Assembly: GCA_964016885.1 (NCBI GenBank)
Contig: OZ024740.1
Coordinates: 200,942,001-201,006,000 of the forward strand
DNA: 64,000 nucleotides
Direction: 5' to 3'
Origin: Eledone cirrhosa
Lineage: Eukaryota
The first letter of the stretch is position 1. Each line of letters opens with the position of its first letter. The notes under the pieces were generated by a model. It saw only the letters and a program-made list of their open reading frames with translations. It ran no database searches and was not told the DNA's origin. Below, piece after piece: positions 6,020-57,186 of the stretch. A program made the translations under genes and the position numbers.

Positions 6020-6337
6020 TATATTAATTCAAAATATTAATAATTGGAGACATTCACGTACTCAAAATATATGTTTTATTATATATATTTCGGAGATACT
6101 GGGCTGTTTTTTCAGTACGTCCTCATCAGATAAAATACATAAATTGATGTATGACATACCTCAACTGTGTTGATGGTTCAATTCCAGTCTTGGCAGTATA
6201 ATAAATATAATAAAACATTTATTAATATTTTGAATTAATATTAATAACTCCGGAAAACTTCACTGTTGAGTGCTTCTAATCTATTGTAAAACTATATTCA
6301 TTGATTAATCAATGAACCTTGTTTAACTTTTGGTTAT
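6020..6337. mobile_element. PLE-derived fold-back remnant in (TA)n
   Basis: Inverted termini attaattcaaaatattaataa / ttattaatattttgaattaat; HHR in left part; unpaired tail opening with ACTC...GAGTGCT at 6247-6274; (TA)n on both sides. Confidence 0.75.
6074..6135 (-). ncRNA. minimal type I hammerhead ribozyme
   Basis: Minus strand: ttttat CTGATGA ggacgtactg..cagtatctcc GAAA tatata TA ataaaa (stem I ttttat/ataaaa). Confidence 0.8.
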
Positions 6338-6367
6338 ATATATATATATATATATATATATATATAT

Positions 6368-6757
6368 AGTTTTATGGTTGCGTGAAAAATGCGTCCGTAG
6401 GCGGTATGCCGGTTGAGCACTCGATGCTCGCGCAGAGCAGAGTATAAGGATAAGGAACAAGGATTCAGTGTTGCATCGTAATATATTTAACATATTACAT
6501 ATGTTTCTCTAGCGATCAGCTCGAAGCAAGATCTATTATAGATCGAACCTGACTCTGTATTCGAAAGGTCGTCAGATATGTTTAGTATATAAGGCAGAAT
6601 CGGAGACGAACTAATATACTAAGCATATCTGATGACCTTTCGATTACAGAGTCAGGTTCGATCTATAATAGATCTTGCCTCGAGCTGATCGATAGAGAAA
6701 CATATGTAATATGTTGAATATATTATAATGCAACACTGAATCCTTGTTTCATCCTTA
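6368..6757. mobile_element. PLE-derived fold-back element with two inverted HHRs
   Basis: Arms ~6446-6590 and ~6614-6757 are near reverse complements; left tail carries AGCACTC...GAGT at 6416-6443. Confidence 0.8.
6624..6713 (+). ncRNA. hammerhead ribozyme with extended stem II (mirror copy at 6491-6580, minus strand)
   Basis: catat CTGATGA [~60-nt stem II] GAAA catatg TA atatg; palindromic helix III CATATG. Confidence 0.8.
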
Positions 6758-6945
6758 CGGGGTCGATAAAATAAAGTACCAGTAATGTACTAGGTAATTG
6801 GTGGCCTTGTGCCAAAGTAGAAACAATTATAATATATATTTGAACCTAGTTACGTCCCTTTTATCCTTACGGGGTCGAAAAAATAAAGTACCAGTAATGC
6901 ACTGGGTATTTGCTGGCCTTGTGCCAAAAGTAGAAACAATTATTA
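6748..6945 (+). mobile_element. two 3' fragments of the tRNA-derived SINE
   Basis: atccttacggggtcga...gtaccagtaatg...ggccttgtgcc...gtagaaacaatt occurs twice and matches full SINE copies elsewhere in the window. Confidence 0.85.
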
Positions 6946-7032
6946 TTATTATTATTATTATTATTATTATATATATATATATATATATATATATATATAT
7001 ATATATATATATATATATATATATATATATAT

Positions 7033-9013
7033 ATATTTATTAAAATAACAGATTAAAGTTTAAGCAAAGAATCGCTGCTTCCACCCTTAACGGGATCTTC
7101 TGAAACTAACAAAGTCAATCTGTAAACGCAGAACTGGATATTTCAAAAAACATTGCAACCGGAGGAAGACAGGAAGACGATACTTTGGTTCGTGGTAACG
7201 TTCGCTGGCAAAAAACGGAAAAAAACGAATAATACGTCATTAATAGGAGCGGTGAAAAACAATTACGCGCAAAGACAAAACCACGTTTATGGTATAAAAG
7301 AGGTCGTAGACTAATGTTCTCTTAGGTGGTGCATAGAGACGTTCTCTGGCAATGAACGAAAAAACGAAGATAATAAGTCATATGTGGAGCGTGGAGAACA
7401 AAAGCACGCAAAGACAAAACCACGTAAATGGTATAGCAGAAGTCGTAGACTAAAATTCTAACTAGGAGACCAAATGAATCTCCGCTACAGAGTTAAGAAC
7501 AAAGTAAATAAATACAATACAGAAGTAATAGAAACAAATAAATACATACACGCAAACAGATACGTACATACACAAGCATACGCAAAACCTTACCATAGGT
7601 ATACAAAACCACGCACATATAAATATGTGTGTGTGTGTATGCTTGTGTACAAATAAATAAATAATTATATAAGCGTATATAAGTAAATAAATACGTATAT
7701 AACAAGCGCACACACATACCTACATATAAATACACGAATGTTCGGAGACGTAAGTCAACTAAAACAAGAAGTACACATATACACCCACCCACCATACGTA
7801 CGAACCTGCATACTCGCTCGGACGCAAAACTCCCGTATACACATAGCCAAACCCTAAATACCAGAATATTTAAAAATGATACGCCATAACAGTCAAATAT
7901 ATGTACGAGAAGGTATACATACCTTCACAAAACATATGGGTAATATATACTTACCTATGCAAATAAGTAAAGGAATAAACAAAACATATACTTAGCTCCC
8001 ACATAGGTAAGTATATATTGCCCATATGTTTTGTGAAGGTATGTATACCTTCTCGTACATATATTTGACTGTTATGGCGTATCATTTTTAAATATTCTGG
8101 TATTTAGGGTTTGGCTATGTGTATACGGGAGTTTTGCGTCCGAGCGAGTATGCAGGTTCGTACGTATGGTGGGTGGGTGTATATGTGTACTTCTTGTTTT
8201 AGTTGACTTACGTCTCCGAACATTCGTGTATTTATATGTAGGTATGTGTGTGCGCTTGTTATATACGTATTTATTTACTTATATACGCTTATATAATTAT
8301 TTATTTATTTGTACACAAGCATACACACACACACATATTTATATGTGCGTGGTTTTGTATACCTATGGTAAGGTTTTGCGTATGCTTGTGTATGTACGTA
8401 TCTGTTTGCGTGTATGTATTTATTTGTTTCTATTACTTCTGTATTGTATTTATTTACTTTGTTCTTAACTCTGTAGCGGAGATTCATTTGGTCTCCTAGT
8501 TAGAATTTTAGTCTACGACTTCTGCTATACCATTTACGTGGTTTTGTCTTTGCGTGCTTTTGTTCTCCACGCTCCACATATGACTTATTATCTTCGTTTT
8601 TTCGTTCATTGCCAGAGAACGTCTCTATGCACCACCTAAGAGAACATTAGTCTACGACCTCTTTTATACCATAAACGTGGTTTTGTCTTTGCGCGTAATT
8701 GTTTTTCACCGCTCTTATTAATGACGTATTATTCGTTTTTTCCCGTTTTTTGCCAGCGAACGTTACCACGAACCAAAGTATCGCCTTCCTGTCTTCCTCC
8801 GGTTGCAATGTTTTTTGAAATATCCAGTTCTGCGTTTACAGATTGACTTTGTTAGTTTCAGAAGATCCCGTTAAGGGTGAAAGCAGCGATTCTTTGCTTA
8901 AACTTTAATCTGTTATTTTAATAAATATTTGCTCTACGGTTCTTATATATTTGATATATATTTTCCTTATCGAGCCCTCTTTGGATTTTAGTCTTCAATT
9001 TTATTATTATTAC
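7033..9013. mobile_element. 1.9-kb non-coding palindromic PLE-type insertion with unpaired tail
   Basis: Arms 7033-7959 and 8002-8928 (~927 bp, a handful of mismatches), 42-nt spacer, ~85-bp tail 8929-9013, (TA)n flanks; ORF track shows mirrored identical peptides. Confidence 0.9.
8854..8904 (+). ncRNA. hammerhead-like ribozyme, CAGAAGA core variant (mirror at 7057-7107 has GGAA)
   Basis: agttt CAGAAGA t ccc gttaa ggg t GAAA gca..tgc TT aaact. Confidence 0.6.
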
Positions 9014-9028
9014 TATATATATATATAT

Positions 9029-54804: not shown

Positions 54805-56169
54805 TATATTGTAAACGTATAATAAAATAAATATGGTTTTATAAAGATATTTTCCATTTCTTAATATTCTTAATATTAATGATACTCCAGATAAAATCTG
54901 TATAGTGCTGTTGTAAAATTAACTTTGTTAAATAATCAACAAGCCTTATAACTCATTGTTTATATATATATATATATATGAAAACAGGGAGAAAGAGACG
55001 ATTATGAGGAAGAAAAATATATTTTTTTCCTTTTTTTGTCTCTGTCTCTCTTTTTTCTGGGTTAGAAAATGATTAAAACGAAATGTTTTACTTTGTGTGA
55101 AATGTTAAGGTATTAGTTGATTTATTTATTATTTAACAATGACATTTATTTATCTATTTATATATTTAATTGCTGTCTATTACCGGTTTCTGCATTTATA
55201 TGCATTATCAAATGATAGTGAAATGTATTAGTGTGGTGTCGCACATGTTAAACAGAAGGTGCAGAAAGAATAATGTTATATACAAACAAGGTTTAATATG
55301 AAATGGCAGAATCTATATATATATTAATAAAAGGAAACACACCCGTGTATATTTATCTTATATATATATATATATATATATATATATATATACGTGCCCC
55401 GGATTAGGTTCGAAAACCAGCAACTTACGACTGTGAATTGAACTTCTTAATCAGTTTCTCCCATTTCAGACATTTACCATCATACGCAATTATATAGTAT
55501 ATACACACACTTCTGCCATATAAACATATAATAATCTTTTTATGAAGAATTTTTTATATATTTCAAATAAAATTGTTTCTTGAATTCTTTGACAATGCGT
55601 TATTATATGAATATACATTTATTTGTGAAACACACGAATGTCTGGAGAAGATAATAGCATATTACTTACTGTGGCAGCTGCTAGGTTATCAGACGACGTG
55701 TATTACATTTAATATGTTTATGTGATTTCATTGAGAGCTTCAAACAGTTGATTCCAAACATTCATACAAAAACAGGTACACTCATGTATATATACATTCA
55801 TATATATATGAATATATATATATGGATGTATATATATATATATGGGTGTGCATGTTTGTGTGTGTGCATATATATATATATATATGTATGTGTCTTTATA
55901 TATATGTGTGTACACATATATATACATACACAATGCATACATATACATATATACATATGCATACAAATGTATATGCATACACACACTCACACACACACAC
56001 ACACACACACATATATATATATATATATATATATATATATATATATATATATATATATATATATATATATATATATATATATATATATATATGAGGTCGT
56101 GTAGGTGTCACGACAAAAAAACATACAGTCCACACTGTAATGTGGCCGTGTAGGTAACACGGTGAAAAC

Positions 56170-56343
56170 CTCCCAGTTCCACACTGTAAATGTGGTTGGT
56201 GTTAGGAAGGGCATCCAGCCGTAGAAAACCCGCCAGACAGTCCTATGCGAGCAAGACAACCACTCTTGCCTCAAGTGGGGAAACTCCCGTCCAAACCCAT
56301 GCAAGCGTGGAATATGGACGTTAAACGATGATGATGATGATGA
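56170..56343 (+). mobile_element. 3' part of another SINE family with (GAT)n tail
   Basis: ggttggtgttaggaagggcatccagccgtagaaa...ggacgttaaacgatgatgatg. Confidence 0.65.
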
Positions 56344-56621
56344 TATATATATATATGCCATAAAATGGCATTTGGTCTACCTTATGGAAGACAGTTTGTA
56401 GCCACATCAAAGGCGATACGTATAAGTAACTATCAGCCTTTTTGATGCAAAATAAGTTTATTTCACTCTATTTTCGTATGAAGCTCTATATTATAAAAAT
56501 TATTACAATTGCACAATATATCCCAATGTATGATATACAACTACAATATAATTATACATTAGCACACAACCTCTCTCACACACACACACACACACACACA
56601 CACACACACATATATATATAT

Positions 56622-56820
56622 ATAAGAATAGAGGTGTAACACACGAGTTATGATATATTGGTAAAAGGAAAAGAAAATGGTGACAAATTGTTAATAAGTA
56701 TTGGTTAGTATTTAGTTGAATACTAACAAATACTTATTACTAATTTTTACTTATTCCTAATTAAACTATTTTTCACTGGGAACAATTTGTCAGCATTTTC
56801 TTTTCCTTTTACCAATTTAT
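56622..56820. repeat. short fold-back with truncated ACTC tail
   Basis: attggtaaaaggaaaagaaaatggtgacaaattgtt / aacaatttgtcagcattttcttttccttttaccaat; cacgagttatg on the left reads ACTC on the minus strand. Confidence 0.7.
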
Positions 56821-56867
56821 ATATATATATATATATATATATATATATAATATATATATATATACAT

Positions 56868-57186
56868 ATAGTGAAAGATTGAAGAATAACATGGTCGGCT
56901 GTACAACATGGGGCTTCATTTCAAGTATTAACAATTGTTTCATTTATCAATGAAACAATTGTTAATACTTGAAATAAAGCCCCTTGTTGTACAGCCGACC
57001 ATGATATTCTTCAATCTTTCACTATTATTACTCCAAGTATAACCTGCATAGGAATTCTCGCGAACTCGCTACCTAAATATGGAGACCTCTTGTTGAGTCA
57101 AACAACGCCGTACGTTAAAACTATCCACAATACAGAGTACTCACAACCTCTAACTGGATTACCTATAACGATAACTTGTTATGCCA
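56868..57186. mobile_element. fold-back centred next to HHR GAAA-CAATTG, with ~160-bp tail
   Basis: aattgtttcatt tatc aatGAAAcaattg centre; arms 56868-56944 and 56949-57025; tail resembles 31261-31397. Confidence 0.8.

Follow-up and report, generated by a model that had tools for sequence, protein, structure and literature searches.

A Twin Hairpin at the Insertion Ends of Hydra-Clade Penelope-Like Elements in Eledone cirrhosa

The Question Raised by the Locus

The stretch analysed here comprises 64,000 nucleotides (nt) of the 3.0-Gb Eledone cirrhosa genome (contig OZ024740.1, positions 200,942,001 to 201,006,000; hereafter the window), and it holds many insertions built as fold-backs, that is, as two inverted arms of which one carries a short extra tail. 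What fixes the two ends of such an insertion? For Penelope-like elements (PLEs), how inverted ends come to bear a one-sided tail has been debated for two decades, the candidates being resolution by the endonuclease (EN), self-priming, or two starts of the reverse transcriptase (RT). The original prediction for this window held that a stem-loop ACTC...GAGT marks the integration boundary of many unrelated hammerhead-bearing elements, and it listed 12 sites and a possible GCTC..GAGC variant at 8931, all of which were found where it had placed them. The answer developed below is that a larger, bulged hairpin lies twice in the 5′ untranslated region (UTR) of PLEs of the Hydra clade, and that the two hairpins are likely RNA docking sites setting two RT start points.

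The Hairpin Motif and Its Covariation

The motif can be written as a bulged hairpin, RCTC-stem-loop-stem-TN-GAGY(RCT), and is larger than first described: the ACTC..GAGT part is real, and the T-N bulge of 2 nt and the covarying inner stem had been overlooked. In the window, ACTC-N8-40-GAGTGCT occurs eight times against 0.45 expected from 100 local shuffles; seven of the eight are at the listed sites and one is in a long interspersed nuclear element (LINE). The bare form ACTC-N8-70-GAGT is at chance level there (79 versus 64 ± 10). That is to say, the 4-bp stem alone is not enriched, so the signal requires the inner stem, the bulge or GCT.

Inverted repeats were collected motif-blind from 1.0 Mb of the window's own genome at fixed positions (80 kb of it adjoining the window), and 1.06 Mb was examined overall. 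For repeats in the window itself, masked self-BLAST was used, plain repeat finding being dominated by microsatellites. The screen gave 280 inverted repeats: (TA)n adjoins a single end in 128, both ends in 8 and no end in 144. After filtering (tail of 30–220 nt, low-complexity sequence removed, one element per tail-less end), 68 asymmetric fold-backs in 36 sequence clusters were left. The combination of RCTC with inner stem, short bulge and GAGY occurs in 37 of them, from 19 clusters whose tails are unalignable with one another, and in 33 of these 37 elements (16 of the 19 clusters) the hairpin starts 3–10 nt beyond the tail-less end (p = 2e-11 against a uniform distribution). Reversed tails carry the motif in 3 of 68 cases and shuffled tails in 0.76. 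When at least three inner pairs are demanded, the strict pattern is found 177 times, against 36 in shuffles. The 31 fold-backs without the strict motif consist of about 11 decayed copies, as judged by eye, and about 20 with other tails; in the hairpin families the tail is about 65–160 nt long. It had been foreseen that tail-less ends would not be random relative to the motif and that the tails would not align as one recent family, and both expectations were borne out, the latter by 36 clusters among 68 fold-backs.

Covariation, for which a test had likewise been proposed, is present as compensatory pairs. The foreign sample was drawn from collections of metagenomes and genomes and comprises 99 Hydra loci, presumably of host DNA, in which hairpins were anchored on sequence words alone, pairing not being required; word-anchored instances number 109 on the sense strand against 11 on the antisense strand. 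Among the 83 distinct instances, the register with a 2-nt bulge lets the first three inner pairs form in 80/82, 60/78 and 43/53 cases, against shuffle rates of 0.77, 0.42 and 0.38 (p = 0.0005 for all three). TT, TC or TA makes up the bulge in 80 of the 83. This inner-pair signal is confined to the 2-nt-bulge register, with none in other registers, and such compensatory changes in a single register are the mark of a conserved structured RNA motif. Hydra elements of other animals show the motif in the form GCTC..GAGC, and compensatory changes accompany it. Two further forms of the core, GCAC/GTGC and GCCC/GGGC, were seen by eye (L298:2667 region and 3′ end; 5′ end of Hydra-1_Crog); they keep pairing at the third position, so the conserved core itself covaries. 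As a side observation on this sample, Hydra PLEs of animal type lie on contigs of bacterial genome bins (L298–L319), likely through host contamination, and a search of viral contigs found no relatives.

In the window genome, the outer pair flips jointly between A-T and G-C in 40/49 cases against 29 expected, and the second and third inner pairs in anchor-only data exceed the shuffle level with p = 0.008 and 0.001. Moreover, an equal-length alignment of 12 rows contains 18 double changes, a number reached in 0 of 500 shuffles. G-U pairs outnumber A-C pairs (25 versus 12, p = 0.024); sense-strand folding is thus favoured, RNA and sense DNA not being separated by this excess. The 10 nt upstream of the hairpins are richer in TA than controls (3.6 versus 2.0 and 2.3). 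Rfam gave no relevant covariance-model match, hammerhead included, for nine hairpin loci and window positions 29100-29700, and for the whole window the matches listed (150 of 234) hold only microsatellite and fold-back look-alikes and no hammerhead.

The Second Hairpin and the Fixed Insertion Ends

In families 0, 3, 5, 8, 16, 24, B and A, copies that run past the tail end into the element body show a second hairpin starting 6–12 nt beyond that end (in family 8 it was identified by eye), and one further locus shows both hairpins. Hairpin 2 is absent from tailed insertions because these stop just before it. With a second copy just past the tail end, the tail is therefore the spacing between two hairpins. 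Among 38 foreign 5′ regions of at least 200 nt, two hairpins were found in 14 and one in 15, the controls giving 1/38 on the antisense strand and 7/261 in coding windows; the spacing between the hairpins is 44–83 nt in 14 of 16 two-hairpin foreign loci. The earlier idea of a cross-family cis-signal that fixes one end of the insertion is thus right about the sharing, which extends over families with unalignable tails (36 clusters among the 68 fold-backs), and wrong about the number, since the signal occurs twice and fixes both ends.

The ends themselves fall at two sites. In the hairpin families, 155 ends fused to (TA)n were mapped. Hairpin 1 accounts for 89 of them (−12 to +1) and the tail end for 66, with 0 in the interval between. 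Foreign ends fused to (TA)n (n = 13, with 19 spurious ends from one query containing (TA)n left out) lie 4–7 nt before either hairpin. Raw reads of three other DNA runs enter (TA)n at 738, where hairpin 1 is at 740, in 141, 118 and 115 cases, and the tail-end junction at 882 is crossed by 75 and 74 reads in two runs, among the matches listed. At the junctions, element and target have a few TA letters in common. In family A the tail end is split into two sub-sites, each of them a TA word, at distances of 8 and 15 nt from hairpin 2 on its upstream side (23/30 and 7/30).

How the two sites are combined in one insertion was read from copies selected by open reading frame (ORF) only in families A and B, a selection free of the bias that affects the pairing table of the 155-end count, whose queries were drawn from asymmetric pairs. 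In family A, 10 copies were fetched and 9 had both ends in view; all nine are inverted insertions with one end at −2 and the other at +140. In family B, 10 copies were fetched, of which 2 were simple, 1 was out of range and 7 were scored; six are asymmetric, and the exception, L211, has mirrored flanks. Each site is therefore used once in 15 of 16 ORF-selected inverted insertions, which is the one-sided tail known from PLEs. Seen from the other side, 13 of 20 tailed family A copies have an inverted arm of the pseudo long terminal repeat (pLTR), tail-less in 13/13.

The longer arm may be the tailed or the tail-less one, and the tail-less arm is often longer, with sequence missing from the tailed arm (26200-29381, L181, L200, L206-L209). 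The arms of one insertion differ by 1.4%, as against 6.3% to other loci (23 insertions). Many short fold-backs have palindromic centres. Hammerhead cleavage was considered as the source of the template 5′ end and ruled out, the arm starts of family A being scattered; the short family-0 fold-backs are not a single amplified unit either, as their centres differ. In addition, some arms exceed one unit length (L201, L208, L209, L215, L219), so templates can be multimeric, as a read-through tandem or a circular RNA. Alongside the hairpin-fixed inversions, the family A copies L152, L180 and L190 contain internal, non-overlapping inversions of the L1 type.

The Elements That Carry the Hairpin

ORF 32055-33938 of the window is a member of a young family, A, with intact relatives of 784 amino acids (e.g., L002), in which a single open frame encodes an RT followed by a C-terminal GIY-YIG domain. 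According to the accessible text of PMC8557442, the Hydra clade is diagnosed by RWK, DKT, CxCx5C, CxxC, CxH, a C-terminal GIY-YIG domain, a (TA)n target and a pLTR hammerhead. Among 117 aligned proteins, RW[KR] is found in 114 and DK[TS] in 117 (RWK and DKT in the intact L002), and CxCx5C, CxxC and CxH in 115, 115 and 114, the last two motifs adjoining conserved E and N. CX2-5CxxC ahead of YIG is present in 0/117, and CCHH is not present, the core having by eye a single Cys that is mostly Ala among relatives. The Pfam match of GIY-YIG is weak (E = 1.7e-4, just under the cut-off), and the Pfam search of the protein matched no RT family. The insertion target is (TA)n, as for the Hydra clade; the family A unit of 3178 nt is above the "generally" <3 kb of that clade, a soft feature. 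A descriptor of our own, requiring the hammerhead core and three stems, predicts hammerheads at nine places in the window, some with a long stem II. A homodimer prediction for residues 1-475, computed without an alignment, scored 0.00 and is evidence neither way.

On these diagnostic motifs, all ORF-linked carriers of the hairpin are placed among the Hydra-clade PLEs; the Nematis clade, considered first, was dropped once the Hydra diagnostics were compared. The carriers had been taken for unrelated elements, which does not hold for one clade, even though its proteins are 33–68% identical to each other. Remains of Hydra ORFs are abundant across the 1.06 Mb. Full-length copies have the motif in their 5′ UTR, past the predicted pLTR hammerhead, about 190 nt ahead of the ATG and at the start of the tail, and both hairpins are 40–190 nt upstream of the start codon. 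An ORF-anchored 3′ scan met the hairpin in 2 of 19 loci, most arms stopping before the hairpin position or being interrupted.

The hairpin is clade-specific, as one Neptune family of the window genome is without it at 11 of 11 hammerhead ends. In a young family of Neptune type (window 59560-62170 (−), L332-L343), 9 of 11 hammerhead ends terminate at the same site in (TA)n, one end continues in tandem, and L342 has a swapped-in tail from another family, with which CGTACT is shared.

Proposed Mechanism and Alternative Explanations

Fixed twin priming on one RNA, with hairpins positioning both RT starts, is the explanation that we consider fairly probable for Hydra-clade PLEs. The GIY-YIG domain would cut (TA)n on both strands; the protein, probably with two units bound to a single RNA, would grip each hairpin; and each freed target 3′ end would pair with a UA word of 2–6 nt lying 3–15 nt upstream of a hairpin and prime complementary DNA (cDNA). 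The cDNA begun at site 2, the tail end, would pass through hairpin 1 and displace the site-1 cDNA, both would stop at random, and the two would be joined head to head via 1–6 nt of microhomology. The product would be an inverted repeat with one end tailed and the other tail-less, and use of a single site would give simple truncated copies. A pair of hairpins with two RT starts would thus explain the one-sided tail. The anatomy is observed, and binding, stoichiometry, displacement and joining are inferred; PAc, the Poseidon element of Anolis (PMC11167929), is a precedent for two internal starts, for priming on both strands and for a required element 3′ of the start.

Several observations weigh against this explanation. 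Genome-wide decoy counts by bulge length are 547 (3 nt) and 522 (4 nt) against 241 for the 2-nt bulge, an unexplained excess, and the first inner pair in own-genome anchor-only data is not above shuffle (32/49, p = 0.135). The hairpins fold weakly on their own, with z < −2 in 3/13 and hairpin 2 of family A unfolded, as is probably often so for sites stabilised by protein. No hairpin was found in 9 of the 38 foreign 5′ regions of at least 200 nt. There are two tailed/tailed pairs (including 46177-46448) and up to three tail-less/tail-less cases (including L211), and solo ends are frequent (33 tail-less and 14 tailed), so each site can act alone. The identity of the arms shows one source element, not one molecule. 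Finally, the in vitro support comes from PAc, which belongs to another clade and has a stem-loop of different sequence.

The main alternative is that the hairpin acts as DNA: the GIY-YIG domain would bind the extruded hairpin and cut 3–10 nt upstream, resolving or trimming a longer cDNA or element DNA. As far as their accessible texts go, PMC8557442 ascribes the tail to EN-mediated resolution, PMC11167929 cites that Penelope EN requires the tail for recognition, and PMC11893778 describes nucleases of the GIY-YIG type with specificity for single-stranded DNA repeats; the TA-rich stretch ahead of each hairpin also looks like the target. The sense-strand G-U bias, however, speaks against folding on cDNA (a sense-strand DNA hairpin is still compatible with it), the sub-sites track TA words as annealing would, and the PAc starts were mapped in vitro as RT starts in the accessible part of PMC11167929, which together leave resolution at a DNA hairpin unlikely. 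More doubtful again is the proposal that the hairpins set RT starts on two cDNAs of separate RNA–protein particles, the asymmetry coming from the shape of the paired complex. The commonness of solo ends of both kinds and the few symmetric insertions suit it, and arms from one active source would be alike in any case; yet independent choice predicts many symmetric pairs, and 15/16 ORF-selected and 13/13 tail-selected insertions are asymmetric.

Self-priming was proposed for head-to-head PLE repeats in the accessible text of PMC3846280, and the palindromic centres of many short fold-backs would fit one cDNA folding back, or antisense RNA priming itself, with synthesis halting at hairpin 1 as a stop signal. 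Longer tail-less arms with sequence absent from the tailed arm are impossible by this route, and hairpin 2 and solo tail-less ends are not explained by it, so it is largely refuted and very improbable. Just as little is to be expected of another 5′ UTR task for the hairpins (translation control, promoter or packaging), with ends lying nearby only through TA-rich words annealing to the target. The position of both hairpins shortly before the start codon and the TA-rich 10 nt upstream of them speak for such a task; against it, AT-rich UTRs are full of TA words and 0/155 ends lie elsewhere in hairpin or tail, ends keep their distance from the hairpins in different animals (−4 to −7), and ORF-less units retain the hairpins. 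Neutral descent of the motif within a single recent family has next to no probability: the ORF-linked carriers do all belong to one clade, but their 19 tail clusters are unalignable, their proteins are far diverged, and compensatory changes in one register only refute it.

For fixed twin priming a wider reading can be offered tentatively, in which an RT related to telomerase would read a twin-hairpin code, with two polymerase sites primed by the cut (TA)n strands and both ends programmed by RNA; in all clades the tail would then represent the distance between duplicated docking signals, and the hairpin pair could serve as a portable cis-signal for placing cargo in microsatellites. If true, the recognition site of a telomerase-sister RT on RNA would be defined, and fixed twin priming would be a second integration logic. 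In practice, a short covarying twin signal predicts both ends within a few bases in elements whose proteins share only about 35–50% identity; it would help in annotating Hydra boundaries and non-autonomous derivatives, and may guide PLE-based insertion tools.

Hairpin Sites and Other Elements in the Window

The Hydra PLE fold-back of family A lies at 31262..35786 (−), with hairpin 1 at 31328-31391, a hammerhead pattern at 31556-31453, an ORF part at 32055-33860 and a tail-less arm ending at 35786 in (TA)n. A second Hydra PLE fold-back, 26200..29381, has a long tail-less arm (−) with a broken ORF at 27494-29098 and a short tailed arm (+), on which hairpin 1 (29300-29327, +) and a hammerhead pattern (29195-29249) both lie. 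Nearby, hairpin 1 at 29515..29537 (−) has a 1-nt bulge and a tail to about 29486 into (TC)n, its partner arm ending at 30813; a Hydra EN remnant is at 30016-30582 (+).

At the left end of the window, hairpin 1 and the tail start are at 6247..6274 (+), with the tail to about 6334, a short tail-less inverted end at 6021-6046 and a hammerhead pattern on the opposite arm at 6129-6080 (−). Hairpin 1 at 6416..6443 (−) has a tail to about 6369 and an inverted arm ending near 6757 at a repeat resembling a short interspersed nuclear element (SINE). The GCTC/GAGC covariant of hairpin 1 at 8931..8978 (+) belongs to fold-back 7033-9013, whose tail-less arm ends at 7033 in (TA)n and whose family includes an ORF-bearing copy with hairpin 2. 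Hairpin 1 at 22876..22906 (−) has a tail to about 22817 and a hammerhead pattern at 22964-23002 (+), in a 68% relative of the 6021-6334 element. Hairpin 1 at 24617..24651 (−) has a tail to 24587 and a tail-less arm ending at 24853 in (TA)n; two solo tail-less ends of this 24587-24853 family, at 20449 and 20615 within 20278..20615 (+), join (TA)n about 4 nt upstream of where the hairpin would lie. Further to the right are the doubly tailed exception 46177..46448, with hairpins at 46225-46248 (−) and 46377-46400 (+); the short fold-back 46504..46655 (+), with a tail-less end at 46504 and hairpin 1 at 46582-46608; the fold-back 54368..54960 (+), interrupted by a SINE-like repeat, with a tail-less end at 54368, a decayed hairpin 1 at 54884-54909 and a hammerhead pattern at 54467-54423 (−); and the fold-back 56868..57185 (+), with a tail-less end at 56868 and a long-loop hairpin 1 at 57030-57098.

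The original prediction of one arm with motif and tail and another ending just before it fits ten sites, where the partner inverted arm stops 0–8 nt before the motif, eight of them fused to (TA)n and two not (6757 enters the SINE-like repeat and 30813 other sequence); it fails at 46177-46448, which is tailed twice. Its placing of the motif 3′ of the hammerhead is true of the parent element. In the window the full pattern is upstream on the same strand only at 29300 and 31391; core halves are upstream of 6443, 9354 and 29537, and the core is on the other arm for 6247, 22906, 24651 and 54884. A direct-repeat unit beginning at the motif, as it had described, is real for the ORF-less unit of about 840 nt at 9260..10202 (−), which has hairpin 1 at 10158-10191 and 9321-9354, core halves of a hammerhead upstream of 9354 and, by eye, a degenerate hairpin-2 candidate at 10067-10091 (−). 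This arrangement is rare: of 259 strict hits, a single one has (TA)n at most 15 nt upstream. An ORF-less tandem unit has its hairpin 2, overlooked at first, at 63979..63996 (+), 12 nt past the end point of that family's tailed copies. Two ORF-less units have hammerhead parts and both hairpins, 9260-10202 (−) and 63880-64000 into L095, one of them in tandem; they are retrozyme-like non-autonomous Hydra derivatives.

Other repeats occur among these insertions. A small asymmetric fold-back without the hairpin (window 9030-9236, L131-L150) is repeated as a whole unit at at least 29 places with 87–97% identity, so a fold-back can itself be remobilised. Fixed-end fold-backs or tails without the RCTC/GAGY hairpin at 19454-20245, 22700-22760 and 56610-56820 are probably of other PLE clades with their own signals. 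The remnant of a Gypsy-type long terminal repeat retrotransposon (48985-54210) has direct repeats and broken pol frames, and L1/Tx1-type LINE copies (12279-19410 and 36541-41402) have broken frames and are partly duplicated and inverted. A short dispersed repeat at 6747-6960, 11025-11670, 25421-25636, 47693-48916 and 54598-54813, often arranged as inverted pairs and lying inside PLE fold-backs, is likely a tRNA-derived SINE.

Comparison with Known Systems

In twin priming of L1, both target strands prime on one RNA and the inversion is joined by short microhomology, the second primer landing at variable upstream sites and the arms having no overlap. In the Hydra elements, by contrast, a repeated hairpin would fix where each of the two copies starts, and the arms have duplicate sequence.

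Within PLEs, the asymmetric tail is a known feature (PMC8557442, PMC3846280), and the accessible literature also covers the Hydra clade, inverted pLTRs, (TA)n targeting and two internal RT starts. The elements of the window agree with the Hydra clade of PMC8557442 in diagnostic motifs and (TA)n target, and a hammerhead is predicted for their pLTRs; they differ in tail length (30–40 nt in its accessible text), in the unit length of family A (3178 nt) and its long predicted hammerhead stem II, and in the hairpin, which that text does not describe. The hairpin can nevertheless be seen by eye in published Hydra consensus sequences: GCTC..GAGCACT hairpins occur in coral Hydra-2_Amil and in sea-cucumber Hydra-1_Ajap (twice) and Hydra-2_Ajap, the Hydra-1_Ajap consensus begins with both hairpins, and that of Hydra-1_Crog has a variant one, while none was seen in the published consensus of Hydra-1_Amil and Hydra-1_Obim. 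The 3′ words have six matches in the whole supplement of PMC8557442, four of them in the Hydra file.

According to the accessible parts of PMC11167929, a pair of internal RT start sites delimits the tail of PAc, cleavage and extension take place on both target strands, the reaction depends on RNA lying 3′ of the start, hammerhead cleavage is dispensable and a dimer is predicted. The starts of PAc were mapped in vitro, and here genomic ends were mapped. Its signal is one AC-rich stem-loop inside the ORF without RCTC/GAGY, whereas the present hairpins have another sequence and lie in the 5′ UTR; those parts of the study report no cross-family conservation, second signal or asymmetric-end rule. 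By eye, the PAc stem-loop (Fig. S1B of PMC11167929) holds the word GCC..GAAAG..ACAAC twice, about 34-36 nt apart, near the PAc tail length, and a twin signal may exist in Poseidon too. PMC3846280 describes inverted repeats in head-to-head order, in which one pLTR bears a tail, and palindromic centres, as here, and its accessible text proposes self-priming on an antisense template and names no cis-signal.

Metazoan non-LTR retrozymes (PMC7229834; bioRxiv 10.64898/2026.07.22.740005) are ORF-less hammerhead units from PLE ends, like 9260-10202, and their accessible texts describe no recognition signal and mention no hairpin, stem-loop or stem. Searches of the accessible literature and of Rfam yielded no account of the hairpin or of its occurring twice; one could still stand in subscription papers, Repbase reports or figure panels. 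In summary, what is new is a cis-element, the twin hairpin, together with a testable mechanism, within a known kind of element.

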